The notes under the pieces are model-generated. The model was not told where the DNA came from and ran no database searches. It worked only from the letters and a program-made list of their open reading frames with translations. Shown piece after piece: positions 33,859-60,872 of a stretch of DNA of 64,000 nt; within the stretch, counting starts at the first letter, position 1; each line of letters starts with the position of its first letter. The translations under genes were made by a program, and so were the position numbers. This stretch comes from a virus, in the IMG/VR virus record IMGVR_UViG_3300032677_001293. The stretch is one strand, 5' to 3'.

Positions 33859-34710
33859 ATGTGTACTTATTGCGGCACAAACAACTATCGTAAAATCTAC
33901 AAAAACCATACGGGAACAATTCCTAAAGATTACTTGGGTCGTAGATATGAAATCCACCATATAGATGGTAATCATAATAACAACAACCCAGATAACTTAA
34001 TAGCAGTTACCATTCAAGAGCATTATAATATTCATTATAATCAGGAAGATTGGCCTGCTTGTTTAATAATGGCCAAGCGTATGAAAATATCACCCGAAGA
34101 AACATCTAGGTTGGCAAGCCTAGCTACACAAAAAAGAATAAAAAATGGAACTCATCATTTTCTTGGAGATAAAAATCCAATGAAAATAGCATCTAAGAAT
34201 GGCACTCATCATTTTCTTGGAGGTGAAATACAAAGAGATTTTAATCTTAAACGAGTAGCAGACGGTACACATCCTTTTCTTGGAGGCGAAGTACAACGAA
34301 AAAGCAATCAGGAAAGATTAGCTAACGGAACTCATCATTTGTTAGGGCCAACACATAATCAAAATAAAGTCAAGAATGGTACCCATAATTGGTTGACAAG
34401 GGCAGATGGATCTAGTGTATCGGCAGATAGAGTTAAAGCAGGGACACATAATTGGGGAGGCCCTGAGTTTAATCTTAACCGGGTAGCGAACGGTACGCAT
34501 CCTTTTATGAAAAGACCAGATGGCTCTAGTTATCAATCAGACAAAGTAAAAGCAGGAACACATCATTTATTAGGCGGTGCTGTTACCCGTAAACAATTAG
34601 AAGATGGCACTCATCCTTCGTGTAATAAAATATCTTGTATTTTTTGTAAAAAAACTGTATCAGCTGGAATGTTTAAACGATGGCACGGTGATAACTGTCG
34701 TACTATATAA
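33859..34710 (+). mobile_element. Free-standing HNH homing endonuclease with a GTH repeat array
   Basis: EIHHIDGNHNNNNPDNL..VT.QEHY.IH is an HNH motif; nine 'GTH' repeats and a C-terminal CxxC...RWH. It is inserted antisense between gp15 and the Nudix gene. Confidence 0.85.
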
Positions 34711-39802: not shown

Positions 39803-40624
39803 ATGAAATCTATACTACAAGACATTATTGTCAACGATACAAGCTACAACAAATCTGCTACCAAAATGCTCAAAAAGACTCATCCTGAGTTATGGGCAGA
39901 TATACTAAACGCTACATCGTTTCTACCTGCTACCGCAAAACCTAAGCAACGTATTTGGCACGTATTAAATAACACATATGAAATACCCCTCTGTCCAGAA
40001 ATAGGTATTGAGGTAAAGTGGCACGAGAATAGATATCTTACCTACTCATCATTGCAAGCAAGTAGAAAAGATGTAGCAAAAAAACTGAGCAAAACTATTG
40101 CAGGCGATAATCATTGGCGTAGCAAAGATCCTAAAAAAGCCAAAAAAGCAAATAAAAAATATTCTAATGGCTATACTACTGGTAGAATTATTGTAGATCG
40201 TTCTAAACGAGATACCGAATCAATACTTGAAAAAACAAAGAGTACCTGGCTTAAAAAATACGGTGTAGATAATCCAAGTAAAGACAAAGCAGTCCAAGAA
40301 AAAATATACCAAAAAGCAGTAGAGCGTGGCTGTACTCCTCGAGAGGAAAGGTCGTTGCGCCGCATATACTATGACGCTGTGTGGCGGATTACCGAGGAAA
40401 GCTGGCGTGATCATTTTGATGACATAAACCCCACTAGATTGAACCGAAGCCATAATGCATTGGACCATATCTACAGCATCCAGCAAGGTTTTCGAGAATC
40501 GATACCACCTTATATCATAGGGCATTATACTAATCTTCGTGTTATTGGATTGAGCGAAAACGGTATAAAAGGCATGCGCTGCGACAAGTCCAGAGACCAA
40601 TTATTTGACGATTTCTTTGGTTAA
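39803..40624 (+). mobile_element. Putative homing endonuclease (HNH-like C-terminus)
   Basis: 'KKYGVDNPSK' repeat-type motif; C-terminal 'ALDHIYSI..GF...NLRVI...EN..K'. Confidence 0.55.
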
Positions 40625-42283: not shown

Positions 42284-45200
42284 ATGGCTAGCACATTAGT
42301 ATCTCCAGGCGTACAAGTTACAGTAGTTGACGAAAGTCAATATCTTCCGGCCGCTACGAATTCGGTGCCGTTTGTAGTTATCGCTACAGCGTCAAATAAA
42401 CTATCCGCAGATGGTACAGGTATTGCCCCAGGAACATTAGCCGTAAATGCTGGCAAATTGTTCTTAGCAACTAGTCAACGAGCTCTATCTGCCAACTATG
42501 GTGTTCCGTTCTTCTATCAAACAACTAACGGTACTCCTATCAATGGATATGAACTTAATGAATACGGCTTATTAGCTGCTTATTCTGCGTTAGGTGTTAC
42601 AAATCAATGTTATGTACTTCGTGCTGATATTGACTTAGCTGCTCTTACAGCATCATTAACCCGCCCAACAGGAAGTCCAGATAATGGTACTTACTGGTTA
42701 GATACAGTTAATACACAATGGGGATTATTCACATGGAATCAAGTTAGTGGAACATTTACTAATGTAATTCCGTCAGTAATTACAAATCAAGATTACTTGA
42801 CTCCATCATCAACTGTACCATTACAAAGTTATGGCAGTATTGGCCAATATGCTGTTGTTGCTACTAACACATCTAATCCAATTTATTTCAAGCGTGGCGG
42901 CCCAACAGCATCGCAAGCTGGTTCGTATGCAGCTGCTTATTTTGGTAATTTGTATAATACTTGGGTTCAACTTGGTAGTGCCCCATGGCAAACTTCTTGG
43001 CCAACTATTCAAGGCACAAATACACCAAGTAGTTCATCATTAACAGCTAGTGATACATTTAAAATTAATAATATATTAATTACTGTACCGTCGAGTCCTA
43101 CTGTATCTCTTATTGTTGATGCTATTAACCAAGCAGGTATTACTGGAGTATATGCGGCTAATATCGGTGGCGCATTAAACTTATATGCTGATACTACGGC
43201 AGGTATTGTGTCATCTATAACTAATTTAACATCTAATGGCACTACTGCTACTGTAACATTTAGTACAGCAGTACCAACACCATATGTTATTGGCAGTACA
43301 ATTTATCTTTCTGGAGTTAGTAACACTGGATCAGCTAATACATCATTATATAATGGCTATTATACAGTTACAGCGTCAACATCTACTACTGTAACTTTTG
43401 CGACTACAACTACAGCTCCATATGTAAGCGGCACAGGTACTGCTATAAATGAAGGAACAGTAGTTCTTGCTAATAATGCTGGCACTTCATTTGCTGCGTT
43501 AGGCTTAACAGCAGGAACATACAATGCTCCAGAATATCAAGTAAGTCCAAGTTATACTGTACCACAATGGAATACATTTAGTGCTATGCCAGAACCAACA
43601 GGCTCTGTGTGGCAAAAATCTAATAGTGTAAACCAAGGCACAAGTATTGTAATGAAGCAATATAACTCTACATTAGGGTTATATGTAATACAATCCGTAA
43701 CAGTATATCCTAGTGATAACGCTGCTCTTTATGGTTTAGATCCATCGGGTGGCGGCCAAGGCATTCCTACTGGCACTTTATATGCTAGATCTAATCCAGT
43801 TAGTGATGGCACATCGGGATATCAAATTCTTGAACGTTACACAACAGGCCCAACTATTGTTACCGGTAGCAATACAACACAAACATTTAGTTCTGGACAA
43901 TCTTTCTCATTAGGCGCAAGTCAGCCTGGCACAGCAGTTAATCAATGGCGCACAGTTAGTTTAGTGTCTATTGGACATTCAGGTAATCCAACAGCTAGCG
44001 ACTTTGTAGCCGCTATTAGTGCCGCTGGCATTCCTTATGTAAGTGCTACTATTAATAGTGCTGGCGCTATTGTAATGCAACATAGCAAAGGCGGAGACAT
44101 TGAATTAGTTGATTTAAATGGCGGAACTGTTGTTACTGATGCTGGCTTTACAACTAGTACTTTCTTATGCCGTCAGCGTTATGTTAACGGTGCTGCCGCT
44201 GGTTTAGTTTTAAGTAACTGGGTAGGTAGCACAACATTTACATACACAGCATCTGATGTGGCTCCAGATCAAGATCCAACTGATGGCACATATTGGTATT
44301 ATAGTGATGCTACACAAGTAGATATCATGATTCAAAACAATGGTGTATGGACAGGATATCAAAATTGTACATCTGACAGCCGTGGTTATGATTTATCTCA
44401 AACCAATGCTACTGGTCCAATCATTAGTGCTACTCCACCATTAACACAAACTGACAATACATCACCATTAGTATATGGCGATTTATGGGTTAATACTTCT
44501 GATTTAGAAGATTATCCAATTTTATCTCGTTGGCAAAATGTTAACGGTGTAGATCAATGGGCACAAATTGATAACACAGATGCTACACAATCTAATGGTA
44601 TTTTATTCCAAGATGCTCGTTGGGCTCCAAATGGTACAACAGATCCTGTATCTGCTGCTTTACCAACAATCCAAAGTTTATTAACAAGTAATTACTTGGA
44701 TCTAGATGCTCCAGACGCATTATTATATCCAACAGGAATGTTGTTATGGAATACTCGTCGTTCAGGATTTAATGTTAAAACATATCAATCAAATTATTTT
44801 AACAATAATACTTTCCCAACATACGACTGGGTTTCTACAACATCTTATACAATTGGTCAATATGTCCAGTATGATAATATTGTGTATGCTTGTATTCAAA
44901 ATAACTCAAATCAAGAGCCAGACACAAGTCCAACTTATTGGTCAGTACAAACTGTAACAAATACATGGTTAACTGCTACAGGAAATCGTCCAGATGGTTC
45001 ACCATACATGGGTCGTCAAGCTCAGCGTGAAATTATTGTTAAAGCTATGAAGAGTGCTATTGATACTAATACACAGATTCGTGAAGAACAAAATTCTTAC
45101 AACTTAATCGCTGTTCCTGGATATCCAGAATTGGCTCCTAACATGGTAGCATTGAATAATGAAATTAATAATGTGGCATTTAGCATTATTGATACCCCAT

Positions 45201-45958
45201 TACGCCTTGCTCCAGCAGATATTGTTACATGGGCAACTGATAATAATGGTTTAGGTTTACCAACAGGCGATGGCAATTTAGCAGCTGGCGATGCTTACGG
45301 TGGCACATTCTATCCAAGCTGTCAGACAACTGATTTGAGCGGAAACTATTGTGTAACTTATCCAAGTCACATGATGATTCGCACAATTATTCGTAGCGAT
45401 GAAATTGCTTATCCTTGGTTAGCTCCAGCTGGAACACGTCGTGGTTTAGTTGATAACGCATTCCAGTTAGGTTACTTAAATGGTATTACTGGTGTATTTG
45501 AAACATTAGGCGTTGGACAATCATTGCGCGATGTATTGTATGAAAACCAAATTAATCCAATCACTTATATCCCAGGTGTTGGTATTACTAACTTTGGTAA
45601 TAAGACATTACAAGCTACAGCTACAGCATTAGACCGTATCAACGTAGCTCGTTTAGTATGCTTTATCCGTACTAGACTTGAAACAATTGGTAAGCAATAT
45701 TTGTTTGAACCAAATGATCAAATTACCCGTACAGAAATCAGTAACTCAATCGTAAGTTTAATGATTGACTTGGTTGCTAAACGCGGTATTTACGATTACT
45801 TGGTTGTATGTGATAACACAAACAATACACCAACTACAATCGATCAAAATCAGTTATGGGTTGATATTGCTATTGAGCCAGTAAAAGCTGTGGAATTCAT
45901 CTATATTCCATTGCGTATCGAAAACACTGGAGCGATTGCGGCGCAGGCTGCTGCTTAA
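42284..45958 (+). CDS. Contractile tail sheath protein (gp18), enlarged to 1224 aa
   Basis: LVSPGVQVTVVDES N-terminus; PWLAPAGTRRG, LYENQINPI, ALDRINVARL and IEPVKAVEFIYIP motifs. Confidence 0.95.
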   Translation: MASTLVSPGVQVTVVDESQYLPAATNSVPFVVIATASNKLSADGTGIAPGTLAVNAGKLFLATSQRALSANYGVPFFYQTTNGTPINGYELNEYGLLAAYSALGVTNQCYVLRADIDLAALTASLTRPTGSPDNGTYWLDTVNTQWGLFTWNQVSGTFTNVIPSVITNQDYLTPSSTVPLQSYGSIGQYAVVATNTSNPIYFKRGGPTASQAGSYAAAYFGNLYNTWVQLGSAPWQTSWPTIQGTNTPSSSSLTASDTFKINNILITVPSSPTVSLIVDAINQAGITGVYAANIGGALNLYADTTAGIVSSITNLTSNGTTATVTFSTAVPTPYVIGSTIYLSGVSNTGSANTSLYNGYYTVTASTSTTVTFATTTTAPYVSGTGTAINEGTVVLANNAGTSFAALGLTAGTYNAPEYQVSPSYTVPQWNTFSAMPEPTGSVWQKSNSVNQGTSIVMKQYNSTLGLYVIQSVTVYPSDNAALYGLDPSGGGQGIPTGTLYARSNPVSDGTSGYQILERYTTGPTIVTGSNTTQTFSSGQSFSLGASQPGTAVNQWRTVSLVSIGHSGNPTASDFVAAISAAGIPYVSATINSAGAIVMQHSKGGDIELVDLNGGTVVTDAGFTTSTFLCRQRYVNGAAAGLVLSNWVGSTTFTYTASDVAPDQDPTDGTYWYYSDATQVDIMIQNNGVWTGYQNCTSDSRGYDLSQTNATGPIISATPPLTQTDNTSPLVYGDLWVNTSDLEDYPILSRWQNVNGVDQWAQIDNTDATQSNGILFQDARWAPNGTTDPVSAALPTIQSLLTSNYLDLDAPDALLYPTGMLLWNTRRSGFNVKTYQSNYFNNNTFPTYDWVSTTSYTIGQYVQYDNIVYACIQNNSNQEPDTSPTYWSVQTVTNTWLTATGNRPDGSPYMGRQAQREIIVKAMKSAIDTNTQIREEQNSYNLIAVPGYPELAPNMVALNNEINNVAFSIIDTPLRLAPADIVTWATDNNGLGLPTGDGNLAAGDAYGGTFYPSCQTTDLSGNYCVTYPSHMMIRTIIRSDEIAYPWLAPAGTRRGLVDNAFQLGYLNGITGVFETLGVGQSLRDVLYENQINPITYIPGVGITNFGNKTLQATATALDRINVARLVCFIRTRLETIGKQYLFEPNDQITRTEISNSIVSLMIDLVAKRGIYDYLVVCDNTNNTPTTIDQNQLWVDIAIEPVKAVEFIYIPLRIENTGAIAAQAAA

Positions 45959-48716: not shown

Positions 48717-49325
48717 ATGAATTCTGATTTAACCTACTATGTTTATGCTTACTTGCGCAAAGATACACTTACTCCTAAGGAACACAATGTTAAAGTTCCT
48801 ACAGATGAGCATAGAATTGTTATTGTAGAAAAAAATTTAACAGATTTAGGTGCTTGTGCTATTGAACGCCGTCTTATTAGCTGGTACGGACGCAAAGATT
48901 TGGGCACTGGCATTTTACGCAATATGACAGACGGCGGTGATGGTACAGCTGGGTATAAATTCTCGCAAGAACAATTAGTAAACCGCTCGCAACAACGCAA
49001 AGGCGTAGCACAACCTAACGGTCGCAAACCAAAACAATCAAATGCTGGTTATATCGAAGCCTGGAAAACTCGCGATAAAACAGTAAAAATATCTACCCGT
49101 GAATTATTAAAAGAAACAAATACAAAAATATGGGCAGATCCTAAATTAAGAGATCAACAGAGCAAGACACGAAAAGAATATTTGAAAAATAATCCTGAAG
49201 AATTAGCAATATCAATCTCAAAATTACAGAAAAAAGTTTGTTGCCCTCGATGCGGAACTATTACAAACAAAGGTAATTTAGCCCGCTGGCACAAAGAATG
49301 TAAAAAGGAGACTCAAAATTACTAA
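48717..49325 (+). pseudogene. Degenerate GIY-YIG-like homing endonuclease (YIG segment missing)
   Basis: [12 protein letters not shown] runs directly into KEHNV with no YIGKG..R; the later [25 protein letters not shown] and C-terminal CxxC..RWH are intact. Confidence 0.6.
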
Positions 49326-49840: not shown

Positions 49841-50461
49841 ATGAAAAATTTTAAAGATTACTTAGCAGAATCCGAGCGCACATATAACTATCGTATCAAA
49901 GTAGTTGGTGATTTGCCTTCAGGATTTATCACAAAACTTAAAAGCAAACTTGACCAATTTGATCCATTGTCAATTGGCGCAGATAAGTCAACTCCAATTC
50001 AAGCTAAACCAGCCGATTTTCCAGCACAAGAAAATCAAAAAGTTACTAGCTTTGATGTTAAGTTACGCTACCCAGCAATCGAACCGCAAATTAAACAAAT
50101 TGCTCGACTACTTGGGTTTGATGAAAATAAAATTATTATGCAAACATCGGTATTTGATGACAGCGTTGACTTTATCAATAAGCAAGTTGAAGACCAACCT
50201 GAATCATTATTAAACGATACTGATTATCCTGCTGACAACGCAGAACAAAAAGCATTGAAGAAAGATTATTCAGCTGATCCATTTGACCATGCTGTATTAA
50301 AAAATGCTTATCGTAGCAACTTTACTATTGCTGGCGGAAGTCCTAAGCCTGCTGAAACAACAAATGAGTTACCACAAGGTGATGACTCTCCAATGACACA
50401 CGCAGAAAAGCGTCCACGCAAGCCAGCAACTGGCGCACAACCATCAGGAAACTACAAATGA
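49841..50461 (+). CDS. Head internal/prohead-associated protein
   Basis: N-terminus MKNFKDYLAE resembles the T4 capsid-targeting sequence; TATAAATA upstream. Confidence 0.55.
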   Translation: MKNFKDYLAESERTYNYRIKVVGDLPSGFITKLKSKLDQFDPLSIGADKSTPIQAKPADFPAQENQKVTSFDVKLRYPAIEPQIKQIARLLGFDENKIIMQTSVFDDSVDFINKQVEDQPESLLNDTDYPADNAEQKALKKDYSADPFDHAVLKNAYRSNFTIAGGSPKPAETTNELPQGDDSPMTHAEKRPRKPATGAQPSGNYK

Positions 50462-52995
50462 GCTTTTTTTACGACCTTAACAAAAAACTAAACGGCATTG
50501 GCGCTGAACAGAAAAAATTAGCAGAGAGTAAAGAAGCTCCTAAAACTCCTGCTCGTCAAACACTTGAGCAAGCATTGCGTCAAGATTTGACAGCATTAAT
50601 GGAAGGCCAAGTAAACGAAATTAGCCAATCTACAAAAGATAGTTATGCTAAAAAAGCAAAAGCAGAAGTAAACATTTACAATCGTAATAAAAATAATCCA
50701 GCACCAAGTCCTAAAGATAAGGAAATGTCTGCTATGTCCGCCGCTCGCCGCGAAAAAGGTTTAGCTCGTATGACCAAGGAAGATGGCACAGGCGGCGCAA
50801 ACTTTTCTGGATCAGGAAGTTTAGAAGAGAAAAAAGAAAAGTGGATTCAAAAAGCTACTAAGCCAAGCACAAAAGGCGACTTACATAAAGCTCTCCATGT
50901 GCCACAAGGTGAAAAGATTCCTAAAGGTAAGATTAGTAAAGCAACACATAGTAAAGACGCACACTTACGCCACATGGCACAGTTTGCTAAGAATGTAGCC
51001 AAAGAAGATGGCGGCAGTGAAATGGAATGTGATAATCCAACTCCATCAAAAGGTATTCCGGGAAATGTTCCAGTACCAGGTAAGATGGATCGTTTGCGTG
51101 GCAAGCGTGATTATTACGAAGCTGACCATAGTGAAGAAGATATTATGGATTATTTAAATCGTAAATTAGCTCCACACGACAAAGAACAAGCTCGTGAAGA
51201 TGCTGTAGCAACTTCATACAATAAAGGCACTGGCAAGCCAGACGCACACAACGGCATGGAATTTGAAGGCAACGCATTTACTGGCAAACTTAAATCAACA
51301 CCTAAAGGTGGCAAATTTAAAGTTGGCGGCGAAGAGTATACAGATACAAGCGAACTCGACGAAGCAGTAAGTCGTAAACATTTCCAAGCTATTGCTGATA
51401 CACTCAAGCATATCGAAGATATGAATAAGCGTAAAGAATTAGCGCAACACCATGCGTCAGCATTTAAGTTAGCTAATCCACGATTTGACCAAGCTCGTTT
51501 CTTTAAAGCAGCTGGTATCACTGATGAAGGCATCGCTGGCCAAGCGGCTGGTACATTAGCTGGTGGCGCACTAGGTGGGCCAGTGGGCGCTGCTATTGGT
51601 GGCGCAATTGGCAATAATTTAACAGGCGATGGCGCTGTTGAAGAAGGTTTTGACGACATGGATGCTTGGTTGAAACAGCGCGAAGCAGAAAAAGGCACAG
51701 GCAAGTTTGATAAGCGTAAAACATCAACTGGTACTGTGTACACACGCAAGCCAGAAACATTTGATGAGCCAGATGCTAGTGATGATAGCGGATCAGCAGT
51801 TAAGCGTGGTCGTGGCCGCCCAGCTGGTACTAAAGGTGCTACAGGTTCCCGTGGACCTACTGGCAAAAGTAAATTAATGTCTAAAGGTTCCATTCGTGAA
51901 GAAGGTGATCATGTTTGTTCTGAATGTGGACAAATGATTGCTGAAAAATCAAAAAGCCAAGCACAAGCACACATGATGGCTGGTGTAGCACACAATCCTA
52001 AATTTGCTAAAAAAGTTGGAATCAAACAGTCTGTAGGCAAAGAATTTAACAAAGCCGACAAAGGTAAAGACATTAGTAAGTTACCTAAAAAAGTTAAAAA
52101 GACTGAAGAAGGTAAGGGCGACGGCAATTTAGCCAACAATGCTAAACCTTATGACAAAGTAACTAAGGGTGATGTTATCGCTGGGCGTCTTGGTAAAGAC
52201 GAAGAAGGCGGTAAGAAGAAATTTAAAAAAGAAGAGAAAGTTGATGAAACAACAACTTCTGGTAGCGTAGCAACTTCTGCGCCAAAAGCTGCTAAATCTG
52301 GCGGCATGAAATTTGGCGGCGGCATTTACGATTCATGGAATCGTGATATCGAAGCTATGATTAGTGAATCAGTTCAAGTTAAACAACAAGTAGTTGAACA
52401 CGCAGAAGATGGTGACGAAGAAGCGATTACAATTACAGCCACAGGTGCTGATGTACATCGTATCAAAGAGTTATTAGCCGCAATGGGTATTCAATCAAGC
52501 GAAGAAGGTCACTCACATGACGATGGCGCTTGCGGTACTTGTGGTGGCGTCCCATGCCAATGTGATGAGATGAATGATATGGAAGAAGGCGTTAAGGGTG
52601 CTATTGCTGGAGCCGCTTTAGGTTCAGTAGCTGGCCCATTAGGTGCTGTAGCTGGCGGATATGCTGGCGATAAAATTGGCGATTATGTAGATGACAAATT
52701 AAATTCTGCTCCTGCTGCCGCTCCTGCTGCTAGCGATCCTACAGCTTCTATTACTGATACTAGCGATGAAGAAGAAATTGCCGAAGCAGATGCTCCTGTT
52801 ACACAAAACAGTCCAGATTATCCTTCTAATCAAGAATATGATGATGATGCATTACAATATAGTGGCGGATTAAATGGGCCTAAGTCAACTGGACAGTCTA
52901 CTATTCCTGTATTAGCAAGTCAAGATGAGCGTCAAGTTTCTGAAGCTAGTAGCTTTTTGAATTTGTACAAAGCATTCGCTAAGATTGTAAAATAA
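50458..52995 (+). CDS. Mosaic head-internal polyprotein
   Basis: Unrelated short modules (basic peptides, two glycine zippers, AT-hook KRGRGRP) each delimited by x-x-E sites. Confidence 0.55.
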   Translation: MSFFYDLNKKLNGIGAEQKKLAESKEAPKTPARQTLEQALRQDLTALMEGQVNEISQSTKDSYAKKAKAEVNIYNRNKNNPAPSPKDKEMSAMSAARREKGLARMTKEDGTGGANFSGSGSLEEKKEKWIQKATKPSTKGDLHKALHVPQGEKIPKGKISKATHSKDAHLRHMAQFAKNVAKEDGGSEMECDNPTPSKGIPGNVPVPGKMDRLRGKRDYYEADHSEEDIMDYLNRKLAPHDKEQAREDAVATSYNKGTGKPDAHNGMEFEGNAFTGKLKSTPKGGKFKVGGEEYTDTSELDEAVSRKHFQAIADTLKHIEDMNKRKELAQHHASAFKLANPRFDQARFFKAAGITDEGIAGQAAGTLAGGALGGPVGAAIGGAIGNNLTGDGAVEEGFDDMDAWLKQREAEKGTGKFDKRKTSTGTVYTRKPETFDEPDASDDSGSAVKRGRGRPAGTKGATGSRGPTGKSKLMSKGSIREEGDHVCSECGQMIAEKSKSQAQAHMMAGVAHNPKFAKKVGIKQSVGKEFNKADKGKDISKLPKKVKKTEEGKGDGNLANNAKPYDKVTKGDVIAGRLGKDEEGGKKKFKKEEKVDETTTSGSVATSAPKAAKSGGMKFGGGIYDSWNRDIEAMISESVQVKQQVVEHAEDGDEEAITITATGADVHRIKELLAAMGIQSSEEGHSHDDGACGTCGGVPCQCDEMNDMEEGVKGAIAGAALGSVAGPLGAVAGGYAGDKIGDYVDDKLNSAPAAAPAASDPTASITDTSDEEEIAEADAPVTQNSPDYPSNQEYDDDALQYSGGLNGPKSTGQSTIPVLASQDERQVSEASSFLNLYKAFAKIVK

Positions 52996-53544: not shown

Positions 53545-53913
53545 ATGCGAGCTAAAGAGTTCATAGCCGAAGCTCATGAAAAATTTTCAGATGAGCAACT
53601 AATGCCTATGGCCGGCGCCGAGCGTTATGACGGCTTAGATAACTCTAATCCTTATGCTATGTGGCGTTTTATTGTAGCGGCTGCTGGATGCGGTGGCAAA
53701 GATAATCCGCATCCACCGCTAGCTAAGTTGGGTCCTATTGGACAAAAATTATCTACACTAGCTTACAGTCAAGGTGACGCAGATATTTTAAATGCGACAG
53801 CAAAGGCTATGGGCGAAAAAAGCACACCGATTAGCACTATTAAATCTGAAGAACCTAGTACAGTACACAAAACAAGTCCTGTAAAAGGATTTGCAGGTTA
53901 TAAAAGAAAATGA
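53545..53913 (+). CDS. Head internal protein (paralog 1)
   Basis: Starts MRAKEFIAE (compare T4 IPIII MKTYQEFIAE) and ends SPVKGFAGYKRK. Confidence 0.6.
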   Translation: MRAKEFIAEAHEKFSDEQLMPMAGAERYDGLDNSNPYAMWRFIVAAAGCGGKDNPHPPLAKLGPIGQKLSTLAYSQGDADILNATAKAMGEKSTPISTIKSEEPSTVHKTSPVKGFAGYKRK

Positions 53914-54311
53914 GAGCTAAAGAATTCATCACAGAAGTAGCTCTTGGTCGAACAGGTAGTTTACAACAAGATATTGCGTTAGCTTTACCAGGTGCGTGGA
54001 AAATTCCAGCACTTAAAAATCAAGATCCATATTTACAATATCGGTTTGGTGTAGCTATTGCCGGGGCAAAAGGCGCTGCTCAGCGTAAAAAAGATGGTGT
54101 ACCGCCATTTGAAAAAGATAATGTATTTGGTGAAAATGAATTTGTAGTAAGTTATGATCCGCATACCGGAGTATATATTCGTGATGCGTTAATAGCTATG
54201 GGATTACCTGGCGACGATGCTATACAAATAGCCACAATGGCTAGTGAAGAAATGCCAGATATAGATAAAGTAAGTCCTGTTACAGGATTTGCTGGTTATA
54301 AAAGAAAATAA
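53910..54311 (+). CDS. Head internal protein (paralog 2)
   Basis: Starts MRAKEFITE and ends SPVTGFAGYKRK. Confidence 0.6.
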   Translation: MRAKEFITEVALGRTGSLQQDIALALPGAWKIPALKNQDPYLQYRFGVAIAGAKGAAQRKKDGVPPFEKDNVFGENEFVVSYDPHTGVYIRDALIAMGLPGDDAIQIATMASEEMPDIDKVSPVTGFAGYKRK

Positions 54312-54328: not shown

Positions 54329-55153
54329 ATGAAGAAGTTATTTACAGGACTATTATTAGTCTTAGCAACATCAACAGTATTTGCGTGGACACAACGTGCC
54401 CCATTTCCAGTAGCACAATGTCAAGCACACGCACCATATGGTTTCCCACAAAGTGCTAAACCAATACAGCCATTATGCCAACAAGCGTATCTAGTAGGCT
54501 ATGACGCACAAGCTAAGTTACCAGAATTTGTTATGTATGAATTATTGCCACAAAACGCATTAGGTTGTGTCGCTCGTACTAACGCATTTGCTCCAAATCA
54601 ATTTGTTCAAAATGGCGCTGTTCCAGGCGACTATGCTGGCACAGGTTACGATAAAGGACACATGGCTCCAGATGGTGATTTATCATGGGATCCACAAGTA
54701 GAATATGAATCATTCTTAATGACTAATATGAGCCCACAAGCCGGCTCGTTGAACCGTGGTATTTGGAAATTATTAGAAACTAGTGTTCGTGGTTGGGCTG
54801 TACAACGCAACCAGTCGTACACAGTTATTGCGGGTGGTTTGTATGGGCAAGGCGATAAAGTTATTGGTAAAGGCGTTATTGTACCACATGGCTTTTACAA
54901 GATTGTAATCAACAATCAAACTAAAGAAGTAGCCGGCTGGGGCTTCCCACATACAGCACCATACCCTAACTTGGGTAATGACTTAACTAAATTCCGTGTT
55001 CCTGTTGCTACTATCATGGCAGACGCACAAGTTAAGTATGCTTTACCACAAGGTTATATTGAATTAGCCCCAGGTAAAGAATGGAGTGTGGATTTTGGAA
55101 AATTAACTCAAATGAAACGCCAAAAATGCGGAGCTAACGCTTCAGACGATTAA
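54329..55153 (+). CDS. Secreted DNA/RNA non-specific endonuclease (NucA/Serratia family)
   Basis: YDKGHMAP...ESFLMTNMSPQ..LNRGIWK.LE and VPHGFYK motifs; Sec-type signal peptide MKKLFTGLLLVLATSTVFA. Confidence 0.9.
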   Translation: MKKLFTGLLLVLATSTVFAWTQRAPFPVAQCQAHAPYGFPQSAKPIQPLCQQAYLVGYDAQAKLPEFVMYELLPQNALGCVARTNAFAPNQFVQNGAVPGDYAGTGYDKGHMAPDGDLSWDPQVEYESFLMTNMSPQAGSLNRGIWKLLETSVRGWAVQRNQSYTVIAGGLYGQGDKVIGKGVIVPHGFYKIVINNQTKEVAGWGFPHTAPYPNLGNDLTKFRVPVATIMADAQVKYALPQGYIELAPGKEWSVDFGKLTQMKRQKCGANASDD

Positions 55154-56780: not shown

Positions 56781-59048
56781 ATGGCAGAAAACAACGCTAA
56801 CCAGAAATTAAACGACTTACTCATTAGTAAGAATTTTGACCCGCAGTCATTAGATAGTATGGGCAAACCTGCCCCATCTCCAGAACAAGCTGATTTATTT
56901 TCTTTTGATTACAAAGGTGAATCAGGACAAAACTATGGCACAGTAGTTGTGATGCTTACCGAAGACAATAATCTAAATGTTTACTTTGGCGATAATATTG
57001 GTAAAAGTATGGAAGGCGATGACAAAAAAGGTTGGTTTGACTTTTTATATCAATTGCGTATGTTTGCCAAGAGAAATTTATTAAGTTTCTCATTACAGAA
57101 TTTAAACAAATTAAAATACAGTATGCAAGGTCAAGCCGCAATTAGCGAAGGCTTATTTGAATCTTGGGCTGGCACAAAAACTCAATCATGGAATGGCGCA
57201 GAAACTGAAGCTAGACTAATGATTAAACATAAACGAGCTATTGGCGAGAATGATGCTCGCTTCCGTTATGTAGAATCTTTATTTGTAGAGACAGCCGAAG
57301 GTGAACGCTATAAATTGCCGTTTACAAAATTATCAGCTGGTCGTGCTATGGTAGAACACGTGCGTCAAGGTGGTAAGCCTTACGATATTCGCGGACAACA
57401 TATTGCTACTATTGTTGAAGAAATGAATTTATTAAGTCGTTTCCGTCGTGCCAATCAAGGTAAAATCTTTGAAGGTGAAACACAGCACTTAGTAGAACAA
57501 GCTACACATTATTACGAAACATTACAAAGTAATCTAAAAAGTTTAAGTACAAAAAATGGTTACGCAAAGTATTTTGAAGGTTGGGATCCAGCCGCATTAA
57601 GTGACGAAGATGTTATTATCGAAGATTTGCGTCATATGTTTGTGGAACAAAACATAGATTCACGCATCGAGCAAGCACTACCATTATTGGCAAAATTACA
57701 ACGGGAACAAAGCATGAAAGAAGCTAACATATTTGAAAATTGGGCAAACCTTATTCTTGAAGGTACTTGGGCAGTTCCGGATACTAAAGAGAAACAAGCT
57801 CAACTAGTTAGCTTGCTTAGTCAAGAATTACCAGTAGGTCCTGATGCTACTAATGCTACAGAACTATTATATGACTTGTTAGGCGATGACGAATTGTTTG
57901 ACCGTTTAGAAGAATTGGCTGAACAAGATGCCAATGCCGACGCTCGTGAAATTATTCTTTCTCGTTTGGAACAATTAAAAAGCAATCCAGCTATAGCACA
58001 AGTTATTGGACAATTAAAGAACCCAATCCCAGATTCACAAGAACCAGTTCAAGAGCGCATTAAAGATCCACACACACAAACAGAAGATCCACCAAATACA
58101 CAGCAACCAGAAGTTACTCCTAATATGCTAGACGAATTAAGTCCAGACACATTAGGTAGCTATGTTAAGCGAGCAAGCTCTGACCGTGCTATGAAAAACT
58201 TCGACCAAGGTGTAGATATGGGCGTTTCATATGGCGAACGTCAACCAAAATTTGACGCAGAAAAAGATCGGCAAGATAACAATCGCCGTCGTGGTATTCA
58301 TAAGGCAGTTAATCGTTTAGTTAAAGAAGGCGCAATGAACGAAGTAGATATTTTACTACAAGATATTGCTCGCAACAATGTTGATATCTACAATATCTAT
58401 GCTAATCCAAAAACTAATGTAGAAAAATTTGTAAGTAAACAAATTCATGATAAAATTGACGAGATTACATTCGAAACTGGATTACATCCAAAAGACGACA
58501 TTGATAAAATATTACAAATAATTTATGATGATATAGCCAAAGACTATGACGTCGACGAAGGCGCTATTGGTAAAGGATTGGGATTGATTGCCGGCGAATT
58601 AATTGCTCCAGAAATTCCAGGTAGCGGAATGATAGGCGCACATATCGGTGATACATTAGGCGATAAATTGAGCAATATGATTAGCGGCAACAATGACGAA
58701 GTGGACGAAACCGCTAGTAGTACTGCTGACCAAATGAAACAAGTACAAGATGAAATTGAAAAAATTGTCCGCTCGGGCGGTCGTGTGGGATTAAATGATC
58801 CGTTAAGTCAAAAGTTAAAAGCACTTAAAGATAAGTTACATTCTGCCAAAGAAGTTAACGAAAATACAGCGTTAACTGGCCCGTACGGACACTCTGGCAA
58901 ATTAGAACCAGTCGAAGGCACTGACGAAGATATGATGGCAAGAATTAAGTTCTTAGCAGGAATCAGAGAAACCGACGCACCAACCGAAACTCAAGCAGAT
59001 TCCAATTTAACTACCATGAAATCTGTCAGTTCCATCTTCCTTAGATAA
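56781..59048 (+). CDS. Large head-associated protein with a mosaic Glu-delimited C-terminal half
   Basis: Globular-looking N-half followed by modules after LDE/VKE/VDE/VNE, including a glycine zipper and a module similar to one in ORF 50458. Confidence 0.55.
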   Translation: MAENNANQKLNDLLISKNFDPQSLDSMGKPAPSPEQADLFSFDYKGESGQNYGTVVVMLTEDNNLNVYFGDNIGKSMEGDDKKGWFDFLYQLRMFAKRNLLSFSLQNLNKLKYSMQGQAAISEGLFESWAGTKTQSWNGAETEARLMIKHKRAIGENDARFRYVESLFVETAEGERYKLPFTKLSAGRAMVEHVRQGGKPYDIRGQHIATIVEEMNLLSRFRRANQGKIFEGETQHLVEQATHYYETLQSNLKSLSTKNGYAKYFEGWDPAALSDEDVIIEDLRHMFVEQNIDSRIEQALPLLAKLQREQSMKEANIFENWANLILEGTWAVPDTKEKQAQLVSLLSQELPVGPDATNATELLYDLLGDDELFDRLEELAEQDANADAREIILSRLEQLKSNPAIAQVIGQLKNPIPDSQEPVQERIKDPHTQTEDPPNTQQPEVTPNMLDELSPDTLGSYVKRASSDRAMKNFDQGVDMGVSYGERQPKFDAEKDRQDNNRRRGIHKAVNRLVKEGAMNEVDILLQDIARNNVDIYNIYANPKTNVEKFVSKQIHDKIDEITFETGLHPKDDIDKILQIIYDDIAKDYDVDEGAIGKGLGLIAGELIAPEIPGSGMIGAHIGDTLGDKLSNMISGNNDEVDETASSTADQMKQVQDEIEKIVRSGGRVGLNDPLSQKLKALKDKLHSAKEVNENTALTGPYGHSGKLEPVEGTDEDMMARIKFLAGIRETDAPTETQADSNLTTMKSVSSIFLR

Positions 59049-59205: not shown

Positions 59206-60195
59206 ATGGCATCATTAGCAGAAATCAGAGCCCGCTTACAAGCGGCAGAAGGTAATAAACAAGGCGGTAATTCACAAGGCGACCAAGCAATTTATCCACA
59301 TTGGTCAATTGACGAAGGTCAAAATGCCACACTCCGCTTCCTCCCAGACGGTAATACAAAAAACACATTCTTTTGGCAAGAACGAGCAATGATTCGTTTA
59401 CCATTTAGTGGTGTTAAGGGAGAATTAGAATCCAAACAAGTACAAGTTCGTGTTCCATGCGTTGAGATGTGGGGCGAGACTTGCCCAATCTTGTCAGAAG
59501 TACGCACATGGTTTAAAGATCCAGCGTTGGAAGATATGGGTCGTAAGTATTGGAAAAAGCGTGATTACATTTTCCAAGGCTTTGTTCGTGAGAACCCATT
59601 GTCAGATGACAAGGCTCCAGAAAATCCAATTCGCCGTTTCATTATCGGCCCACAAATCTTCACACTTATCAAAGGTGCGTTGATGGATCCAGAGTTGGAA
59701 GAATTACCAACAGACTATTTAAAAGGTCTTGACTTCCGTATCTCTAAAGGTAGCAAAGGCGGCTTCGCTGACTATTCAGGCTCTAAGTGGGCTCGTAAAG
59801 AATCAGCACTAACAGAAGCTGAACAAGCGGCTATTGAACAATATGGTTTGTTTGATTTATCAACATTCCTTCCAAAGAAACCAACTGATGTTGAGTTGAA
59901 AGTTATCAAGGAAATGTTCGAAGCATCAGTGGATGGTCAGAGCTATGATGCTGAGCGTTGGGGTCAATACTATCGTCCAGCAGGAGTAAATGCTCCGGCA
60001 GGTACTTCAGCACCAGCGGCCATAGCAGAAGATGCTCCAGTAGCTAAAGCGGTGCCAGCGCCAGTAGCTTCTAGTTTTGATGAAGAAGATGATGTTCCTG
60101 TAACAAGTGCTCCAGTTTCAACTTCTGCGGCAACTTCGGACAAAGCGCAAGATATTTTGCAAATGATTAGAGCACGTCAACAAAAGACTGTTTAA
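59206..60195 (+). CDS. Single-stranded DNA-binding protein (gp32)
   Basis: LRFLPDG, Zn-ligand PCVEMWGETCPI, K.SKGGFADY..S.W and an acidic/low-complexity tail. Confidence 0.9.
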   Translation: MASLAEIRARLQAAEGNKQGGNSQGDQAIYPHWSIDEGQNATLRFLPDGNTKNTFFWQERAMIRLPFSGVKGELESKQVQVRVPCVEMWGETCPILSEVRTWFKDPALEDMGRKYWKKRDYIFQGFVRENPLSDDKAPENPIRRFIIGPQIFTLIKGALMDPELEELPTDYLKGLDFRISKGSKGGFADYSGSKWARKESALTEAEQAAIEQYGLFDLSTFLPKKPTDVELKVIKEMFEASVDGQSYDAERWGQYYRPAGVNAPAGTSAPAAIAEDAPVAKAVPAPVASSFDEEDDVPVTSAPVSTSAATSDKAQDILQMIRARQQKTV

Positions 60196-60872
60196 TGACC
60201 GTAGCTTTTGTCTATAAATGGACTCACATACCGACCTTAAAGTGGTATGTGGGTTCCAGAACCGCCGAAGGCTGCCATCCAGATGATGGGTATATCGCAT
60301 CGGCTAAATTACTGAGAAAGCATATCTTAGAAAATAAAGAAGAGTGGAAACGAGAAGTCATCAGTATCGATAGTGTTAAAAATGTATTAGATCTAGAAAC
60401 AGAAATCTTACAAATGTTTGACGCAAGACACGATCCTAGAAGTTGGAATCGACACAACAATGATGGCATAATCGTAATCACAGGCGATAAAAATCCAATG
60501 AAAGATCCAGAAGTGGCACAACTAGTAGCAAATGCTATTCGTGGTGATAATCACTGGACCCACAACTTAGATGGTAAAGAACATCCGCAAAGAGGACAAA
60601 AGCGACCAACAATAACGGGCGACAATCATCCAAATAAAGATCCAATAAATGCTGCTAAGATTAGTAAAAGTCATACAGGTAAACGACATGAATACATGGA
60701 CGGCAAAAAAAATATTATGCATCGTGAAGAAGTATTAGCGCAATTATCGGGCGGCAATCATTGGGTGAATAAAATTGAAAACCGGTTGACTTGTGAACAT
60801 TGCGGCATTACAATAATGAAAAGCAATTACACTCGTTGGCACAGCAAGAATTGTAAATTTAAAAAGGAATAA
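60195..60872 (+). mobile_element. Seg-like GIY-YIG homing endonuclease
   Basis: FVYKW...WYVGSR...DDGY..S...E...N.HN catalytic domain, GDxN/H repeats and C-terminal CxxC..RWH. Confidence 0.75.

Follow-up and report, generated by a model that had tools for sequence, protein, structure and literature searches.

A giant-phage protein with a conserved frame and exchangeable glutamate-bounded cassettes: a candidate precursor for processing by the prohead protease

Here we describe one gene in a 64,000-nucleotide stretch of viral DNA (IMG/VR record IMGVR_UViG_3300032677_001293), which as a whole is called the window below. The gene is an open reading frame (ORF) at 50458-52995 on the plus strand and encodes a protein of 845 amino acids (aa), P0001. 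Judged from the alignment of its homologs, P0001 is a conserved scaffold that carries exchangeable cassettes, and not a free string of captured genes. The joints between its parts are marked by glutamate (Glu), and we consider it fairly probable that P0001 is a head-targeted precursor which is cut at these joints by a protease of the S77 family, the type of the T4 prohead protease gp21. An original prediction, made from the letters of the window, had described the protein as a chain of unrelated mini-proteins separated by Glu cleavage-like sites, captured into one head-targeted polyprotein and released by the maturation protease. The architecture of the protein, the statistics of its boundaries, the stand-alone homologs of its modules, the synteny of its neighbourhood and the protease in related phages were all observed directly, and are presented first.

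Results

A conserved frame with exchangeable cassettes

Homologs of P0001 were retrieved from metagenomes as 762 near-length and 835 shorter matches, on contigs of up to 375 kb. Metagenomes are rich in the family, with 1,980 cluster representatives at 50% identity, whereas cultured phages lack it, and for this reason it is unstudied; no near-identical DNA was found in phage records. Full-length members span from less than 500 to more than 1,200 aa, a range of about 2.5-fold. Collinearity with P0001 was seen in 111 of 120 homologs, and approximately two thirds of the protein form a framework that is collinear across the family. The parts of the gene, all on the plus strand, are as follows.

50458-52995 (+): putative modular virion-protein precursor P0001, 845-aa ORF (family census)
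50458-50604 (+): N-terminal leader with predicted helices, ends L-M-E, aa 1-49; candidate head-targeting region
50605-50781 (+): optional basic insert cassette after LME, ends in E, aa 50-108; in about one third of homologs
50782-50829 (+): conserved Gly-rich linker, ends L-E-E, aa 109-124; E123 100% and E124 83% Glu, P3 = L
50830-51027 (+): KWIQ cassette, basic helical mini-domain, aa 125-190; predicted local distance difference test (pLDDT) 91-94 for aa 140-180
51028-51267 (+): conserved framework segment, ends E-F-E, aa 191-270
51268-51363 (+): GNAF beta-hairpin module, aa 271-302; mobile within the family, its position differing among homologs
51364-51528 (+): NPRFD three-helix module, aa 303-357; pLDDT 94-96; solo 51-aa ORF at L089:681-836
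51529-51645 (+): glycine zipper 1, from the E/G joint to VEE, aa 358-396; weak DUF456 match below cut-off
51646-51768 (+): conserved helix and hairpin, aa 397-437; E396 96% Glu; V427, Y428, T429 and R430 invariant or nearly so
51769-51903 (+): basic disordered segment with AT-hook core RGRP, aa 438-482; net charge +5
51904-51945 (+): short CxxC segment, ends I-A-E, aa 483-496; E496 96% Glu, P3 I/V/L in 85%
51946-52110 (+): DUF3008-like basic cassette, aa 497-551; phrog_16759 at 1.2e-15; net charge +10; solo ORFs exist
52111-52248 (+): GKGDGN cassette and K-rich linker, ends in invariant V-D-E, aa 552-597; E597 100% Glu; 67-aa solo form P0209
52249-52569 (+): universal core with TTTSGSVAT motif, alpha-beta-beta-alpha unit and Cys cluster (CxxC-x4-CxC), aa 598-704
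52570-52785 (+): variable acidic region with glycine zipper 2, ends in invariant I-A-E, aa 705-776
52786-52992 (+): highly conserved C-terminal tail with terminal helix, aa 777-845; many invariant residues; disordered except aa 831-844

The ORF and every module string quoted in the original prediction were recovered in place: residue 125 corresponds to nucleotide 50830, residue 303 to 51364 and residue 497 to 51946, the first glycine zipper lies at 51529-51645, the AT-hook RGRGRP at about 51802 and the second glycine zipper at 52588. A, K, G, E, D and S are abundant in the protein, whose 68 Glu residues make up 8% of it. Self-comparison found no internal repeats besides the two glycine zippers; the modules are therefore unrelated to each other, as had been claimed.

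The conserved frame begins with the N-terminal leader, in which M1, F4, Y5, L7, N8, L11, L47 and M48 are near-invariant, and continues with the Gly-rich linker to L-E-E, the helix-hairpin block, which occurs in other proteins too (P0174), and the AT-hook core, whose RGRP (R452, G453, R454 and P455) is invariant or nearly so in the family and marks a putative AT-hook, a motif in which such a core, with basic residues on its flanks, binds the minor groove of DNA. It is completed by the invariant V-x-E followed by TTTSGSVAT, the alpha-beta-beta-alpha unit with its Cys cluster, and the very conserved C-terminal tail. The universal core (aa 598-704) was found in all 120 near-length homologs.

Between these parts, aligned homologs carry unrelated cassettes that substitute for each other in fixed slots. 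The slot after L-E-E124, filled by the KWIQ cassette in P0001, has at least three unrelated alternatives. That after I-x-E496 holds either of two DUF3008-type variants or a different basic cassette (in P0039, a tandem pair), and that after T-E-E551 is occupied by GKGDGN, by a glycine zipper or by an EF-hand-like cassette. Family members differ in where the GNAF hairpin and the glycine zippers are placed. This alignment, together with the indel statistics given below, bears out the expectation that Glu boundaries are the exact points at which modules are gained, lost or replaced; orthologs collinear over their full length with zero shuffling, which would have spoken against it, were looked for and are not what the family shows. 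The notion of a chain of captured genes survives in part: the cassettes are exchangeable, but they are confined to slots in a largely collinear protein and do not form a free chain.

Database matches to the individual parts were sparse. Pfam returned two sub-threshold matches only for P0001 (DUF456 and Gly-zipper_Omp), and PHROGs no enzymatic family. Residues 497-551 alone had no Pfam match at E <= 1, so that this segment does not itself qualify as DUF3008 (PF11450); in homologs such as P0004, the alternative cassette in the same slot has a precomputed PF11450 match. Residues 712-747 scored 17.1 bits against the glycine zipper family PF13488 (cut-off 25), the GxxxG periodicity is visible in the sequence, and PF13488 or PF05433 is present in some homologs. 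The region of this second zipper matched phrog_6056, 'internal virion protein', at 3e-4.

Glutamate at the module boundaries

The x-x-E pattern that had been proposed to delimit the modules is not significant in the single sequence, where [LIVM]-x-E occurs 15 times against about 10 expected, and became significant once relatives were compared. For each module we recorded the residue preceding its first conserved position (P1) in distinct contexts among 241 retrieved proteins. This residue was Glu in 59 of 60 contexts of the GNAF module, 20 of 20 of GKGDGN and 50 of 50 of the helix-hairpin block. The same held for the DUF3008-type module (25/25, with I, V, L or M at P3 in all) and for the C-terminal tail (37/37, with L, I or V at P3 in 34). 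Overall, P3 of the boundary triplets is mostly I, L, V or M and P2 is free. Both the freedom at P2 and the variety of residues upstream speak against the boundary Glu being simply inherited.

Insertions and deletions gave a similar picture. From 1,234 close pairs we drew a non-redundant set of 99 indels, each of 15 aa or more and well aligned at its flanks, and compared their positions with random placement in 2,000 trials. Just over half (51/99) start directly after a Glu, against a null mean of 10.6 and maximum of 24, and in 36 of the 99 the insert that follows a Glu also ends in one (null mean 1.9, maximum 8).

Column profiles over 76 homologs identified the sites E108/E49, E124, E302, E496, E597, E776 and E829 as Glu in at least 83%, with a hydrophobic P3 in at least 85%; E776 reaches 100% Glu with L, I or V at P3 in 93%. 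E357 and E396 are Glu in at least 96%. Of the triplets listed in the original prediction, VNE54 is found only in the approximately one third of homologs with that insert, and MEE710 is poorly conserved. At E597 the P3 Val is encoded by all four of its codons, D, E or K is found at P2, and the P1 codon is either GAA or GAG. The four Val codons and the varying P2 therefore indicate selection on the peptide and not on the DNA joint, and on the same grounds we rejected the idea that the conserved joints serve as microhomology for recombination.

Modules as stand-alone genes

Three modules of P0001 also exist as independent small genes, of 50-67 aa. The DUF3008-like, or AHNPKFAKKVGI-type, module forms a solo ORF of 52 aa in the region of the head genes in Stenotrophomonas phage BUCT555, and has further solo forms in 201phi2-1 gp383 and the 50-aa P0229. 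In the 121Q virion protein gp51 it makes up the N-terminus. The NPRFD module stands alone as a 51-aa ORF among the small genes of a related 317-kb genome (G002), and the GKGDGN module is found in the 67-aa ORF P0209, behind a short leader ending in Glu. Solo ORFs begin 1-3 residues from the post-Glu boundary position and finish near the next boundary. Stand-alone homologs had been proposed for three modules, and were found for the AHNPKFAKKVGI-type and NPRFD modules. The KWIQKA module was not found as a stand-alone ORF, and was seen only inside other multi-module proteins; these KWIQ copies share 64-86% identity and are again bounded by Glu.

Predicted structure

An AlphaFold2 (AF2) model built on a 76-sequence alignment resembles beads on a string, with mini-domains separated by disorder. 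Confident mini-domains were predicted at residues 140-180 (pLDDT 91-94), 281-300 (a hairpin), 305-355 (pLDDT 94-96), 399-430 and 623-675; the AT-hook, the DUF3008-like cassette, the glycine zippers, the conserved C-terminal tail and all else outside the mini-domains were predicted to be disordered. The candidate cleavage sites fall in the disordered joints, except for E637, which lies in a helix of the core. Cutting at these sites is predicted to give fragments of 5-107 aa, five of them strongly basic (pI approximately 10) and the remainder acidic.

Structure searches were largely uninformative. Foldseek against the PDB returned nothing at E <= 0.001, a VIA-align wide search with residues 301-371 found generic three-helix bundles only (Z <= 6.7), the ESM Atlas yielded no usable named cluster, and a PDB sequence-profile search with the universal core found nothing. 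Folded alone, this core gave the same alpha-beta-beta-alpha unit at a pLDDT of 57, too low for structure search. Whole-chain matches in BFVD were meaningless, save for small solo proteins of 51-78 aa, each of which matches one P0001 mini-domain.

Head context and protease

The T4 prohead protease gp21 cuts after Glu in L/I-X-E; the T4 core proteins gp22, gp67 and gp68 are cut at multiple sites (PMC9026906), and the T4 internal proteins once (PMC9026906, PMC8442874). For P0001 the gene context points to the head, through the leaders of its neighbours and its synteny with PA5oct virion proteins. These neighbours are listed here.

49841-50461 (+): upstream gene, 206 aa, with a leader like the T4 capsid-targeting sequence, ending L-A-E; homolog of PA5oct gp282
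53545-53913 and 53910-54311 (+): two tandem paralogs, 122 and 133 aa, with capsid-targeting-like leaders ending I-x-E

The first ten residues of the 206-aa protein closely resemble the T4 capsid-targeting sequence (PMC8442874). The protein shares 33% identity with the PA5oct virion protein gp282, whose N-terminus is without the Glu. A leader of about 10 aa that resembles the T4 capsid-targeting sequence and ends in I/L-x-E is present in three neighbouring genes, and absent from P0001 itself. Across related loci, genes with such leaders flank the family gene in 80 of 80 cases; there are 221 ORFs with these leaders, all on the strand of the family gene, and none on the opposite strand among 2,556 ORFs. 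P0001 occupies the position of PA5oct gp281, and gp281 and gp282 are both annotated as detected in virions by electrospray ionisation tandem mass spectrometry (ESI-MS/MS). Direct comparison and profile search found no homolog of the framework in PA5oct, 121Q or 201phi2-1. The tandem paralogs share a C-terminal motif ending GYKRK, and in almost all related loci the family gene is followed by two or three genes of this kind.

Peptidase_S77 (PF03420, T4 gp21-type) was found above cut-off in two related genomes, G001 and G002, and in PA5oct; G001 is complete and has a family member, at about 244.9-246.7 kb, while its S77 gene is at L088:10406-11053. The head module around the S77 prohead protease in these relatives is T4-like. 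In all three, the major capsid protein (L088:12175-13371 in G001, L092:1356-2552 in G002 and L093:1851-3038 in PA5oct) has a propeptide with a conserved L-x-E at its end, after which comes NASAG..GNIAT. The motif after E597 of P0001, and DASAG..GSVAT of P0190, resemble this N-arm of the capsid protein, a likeness that may reflect P-prime-side recognition or a shared docking site. The position of T4 gp67/gp68, just upstream of the prohead-protease gene, is taken by a very acidic protein of approximately 260 aa (L090:1255-2073 in G002, L088:9632-10399 in G001). The G002 version has an AEKAG..DIEYDE module in common with some family members (E = 2.6e-4 per genome).

After the terminase gene, the window encodes a 755-aa virion-type protein (56781-59048) with a folded-looking N-terminal part. 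Its C-terminal region has V-D-E followed by a glycine zipper, a V-D-E/TASST site and a FLAGI motif as in the C-terminus of the G001 scaffold. This protein may be another substrate of the same protease.

The window and its phage

Judged from its gene content, the source phage is a large myovirus and the window is its tail, neck and packaging region. The window encodes tail fibres, a 1,224-aa sheath, tube proteins, a head-closure protein and the large terminase subunit of T4 type, as well as a gp32-like single-stranded DNA-binding protein and UvsX, with several homing endonucleases interspersed. The P0001 gene has the neck and tail genes on one side and the gene of the large terminase subunit on the other; this terminase is 52% identical to that of the Pseudomonas jumbo phage PA5oct. 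The gene order is also that of PA5oct (adaptor, sheath, tube, head closure, terminase).

The tail sheath (42284-45958) is unusually long and has an inserted carbohydrate-binding module (CBM_5_12; 24.6 bits, just under cut-off). At least four homing-endonuclease-like genes (HNH and related; 33859-34710, 39803-40624, 48717-49325 and 60195-60872) lie among the structural and recombination genes, and several related loci have one between the capsid-targeting-leader gene and the family gene. A DNA/RNA non-specific endonuclease (54329-55153; PF01223, 1.8e-36) is encoded between the capsid-targeting-leader genes and the terminase.

Discussion

We propose that P0001 would be a late-expressed, prohead-targeted precursor of a jumbo myovirus related to PA5oct. 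The framework (leader, AT-hook segment, V-x-E followed by TTTSGSVAT, the alpha-beta-beta-alpha unit with its Cys core, and tail) would supply slots, into which cassettes of 30-70 residues would be exchanged by recombination, each unit being bounded by Glu, usually as [I/L/V/M]-x-E. A T4 gp21-type (S77) protease would most likely cut at these joints during head maturation and give approximately 15-20 peptides and mini-domains. The basic fragments (AT-hook, DUF3008-like, KWIQ) would stay with the packaged DNA, and some fragments may exit with it at infection.

What the fragments would do is less certain. That they act after injection is a tentative suggestion, which we hold less likely than not; they may instead condense DNA or merely be cleared away. 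A wider version, in which mini-protein genes that also exist as solo early genes form a pool and are shuffled, as cassettes bounded by Glu, into precursors targeted to the head, so that the protease frees dozens of small effectors (DNA-binding, membrane-active, possibly anti-defence) that are injected before phage gene expression, seems to us rather unlikely.

That P0001 resides in the head, that it is cut, and what its fragments become and do are what we infer. Several points weigh against its being a head-targeted precursor cut at its Glu joints. Its N-terminus is unlike the T4 capsid-targeting sequence, being conserved in its own right with L-A-E at residue 23 and L-M-E at residue 49, and PA5oct gp281, whose position it occupies, shows no detectable similarity to it. 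The protease was seen in relatives only, the 64-kb window having neither an S77 gene nor the head module, as the original prediction had already said of the protease. The boundary residues E270, E551, E583 and E704 are conserved without the hydrophobic P3 of the T4 motif, and the invariant L/I-x-E at E637, in a predicted helix of the folded core, may be structural. The homologs are not independent, so that raw context counts overstate the number of events. Finally, a tblastn search of 50,697 phage records with the full P0001 matched only residues 494-574, the DUF3008-like part; as far as these records go, a full-length homolog is absent from cultured phages.

Two other accounts of the protein are, in our judgement, improbable to a similar degree. 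In the first, P0001 would be an accessory of the core or scaffold that serves assembly alone. It would be cut at Glu sites only to clear the head for DNA, like T4 gp22, gp67 and gp68, its fragments having no later role and its cassettes tuning core assembly or head size. The T4 core proteins are indeed cut to many fragments that mostly leave the head (PMC9026906), the acidic core protein adjoining the protease has a module in common with the family, and the framework is conserved and collinear, all as this account would have it. It fits less well with cassettes that fold as confident mini-domains in the AF2 model. Their existence as independent genes outside structural modules is hard to square with disposable filler, as in the 51-aa ORF among small non-structural genes of G002 and in 201phi2-1 gp383, which is not listed among virion proteins. 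Moreover, the strongly basic character of many fragments would keep them on the DNA.

The second account takes P0001 to be an uncleaved or end-trimmed, largely disordered virion protein that acts as one chain, for example a DNA-organising inner-head or ejection protein, with its Glu-rich joints as flexible acidic linkers that tolerate domain shuffling. Cleavage is inferential, the protein is 8% Glu, [LIVM]-x-E is not enriched in its single sequence, and some boundaries are without a hydrophobic P3, which are points in favour of such linkers. A linker model does not, however, predict one invariant Glu right before a module with a free P2 and a hydrophobic P3, nor inserts that both follow and end in Glu, nor solo ORFs that start near the post-Glu residue.

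A tail tape measure or other tail-internal protein is the least likely alternative and highly improbable: the sheath and tube genes lie a few kb upstream of P0001, and glycine zippers, and LysM, which some homologs carry as inserts (P0040, P0041, P0044), occur in some tape measure and ejection proteins, but we rejected a tape measure since the family varies in length from less than 500 to more than 1,200 aa, the AF2 model is mostly disordered and not one long helix, PHROGs and Pfam gave no match to a tape-measure family, and the immediate neighbours bear leaders of head-targeting type.

Should P0001 really be cut at its Glu joints as proposed, it would represent, to judge from literature searches, the first polyprotein-like strategy described in tailed phages, in which the head protease frees many mini-proteins from one exchangeable array. 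The known cargo of giant-phage heads would widen, and the [I/L/V/M]-x-E joints would provide a sequence rule for predicting packaged peptides in metagenomic phages. Such a system would also be a natural modular route for loading small proteins into capsids, and its dozens of conserved mini-domains, some of them solo genes, would be candidates for early host takeover or DNA condensation. Were the combinatorial delivery of effectors also true, it would amount to the phage counterpart of a viral polyprotein, serving at the same time as an evolvable array of effector cassettes.

Comparison with known systems

In the literature on phage polyproteins processed by prohead proteases, on DUF3008 and on PA5oct proteolysis we found no published description of such a gene. 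The polyproteins of eukaryotic viruses and the adenovirus core precursors cut by adenain follow the logic proposed here, the virion protease turning one translation product into several, some of them basic DNA-associated peptides; they are unrelated to P0001 in sequence, protease and lineage, and the likeness is one of analogy only. A further comparison is with the polyvalent proteins of phages and conjugative elements (Iyer et al. 2017, PMC5512222), which are mosaic, encoded near virion genes and proposed to be packaged and delivered with the DNA, in some cases once they have been processed. P0001 also has a mosaic architecture beside virion and packaging genes, seen in its cassette replacement and gene position. 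However, polyvalent proteins are built of large enzymatic domains (ART, MPTase, ParB-like, lysozyme and others), none of which was found in P0001; its modules are non-enzymatic and of 30-70 aa, and their processing would be by the head protease and not by a built-in peptidase.

The T4 proteins gp22, gp67 and gp68, and head and inner-body proteins of phiKZ, 201phi2-1 and SPN3US, each undergo cleavage by a gp21-type protease after Glu, at several sites in one protein (PMC9026906), a candidate likeness for P0001. Unlike P0001, these multiply cleaved proteins are not made of shuffled, independently folding mini-modules with solo genes, and no homology to P0001 was detected. The internal T4 proteins IPI, IPII and IPIII, together with Alt, are like P0001 encoded among late structural genes, and we predict that it shares with them entry into the prohead core and cutting after Glu in I/L-x-E. 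The leaders of its neighbours closely resemble the T4 capsid-targeting sequence, which gp21 removes (PMC8442874, PMC9026906). Whereas the T4 internal proteins are single-domain and cut once, P0001, which has a different N-terminus and no sequence homology to them, has approximately 15-20 candidate sites and exchangeable cassettes.

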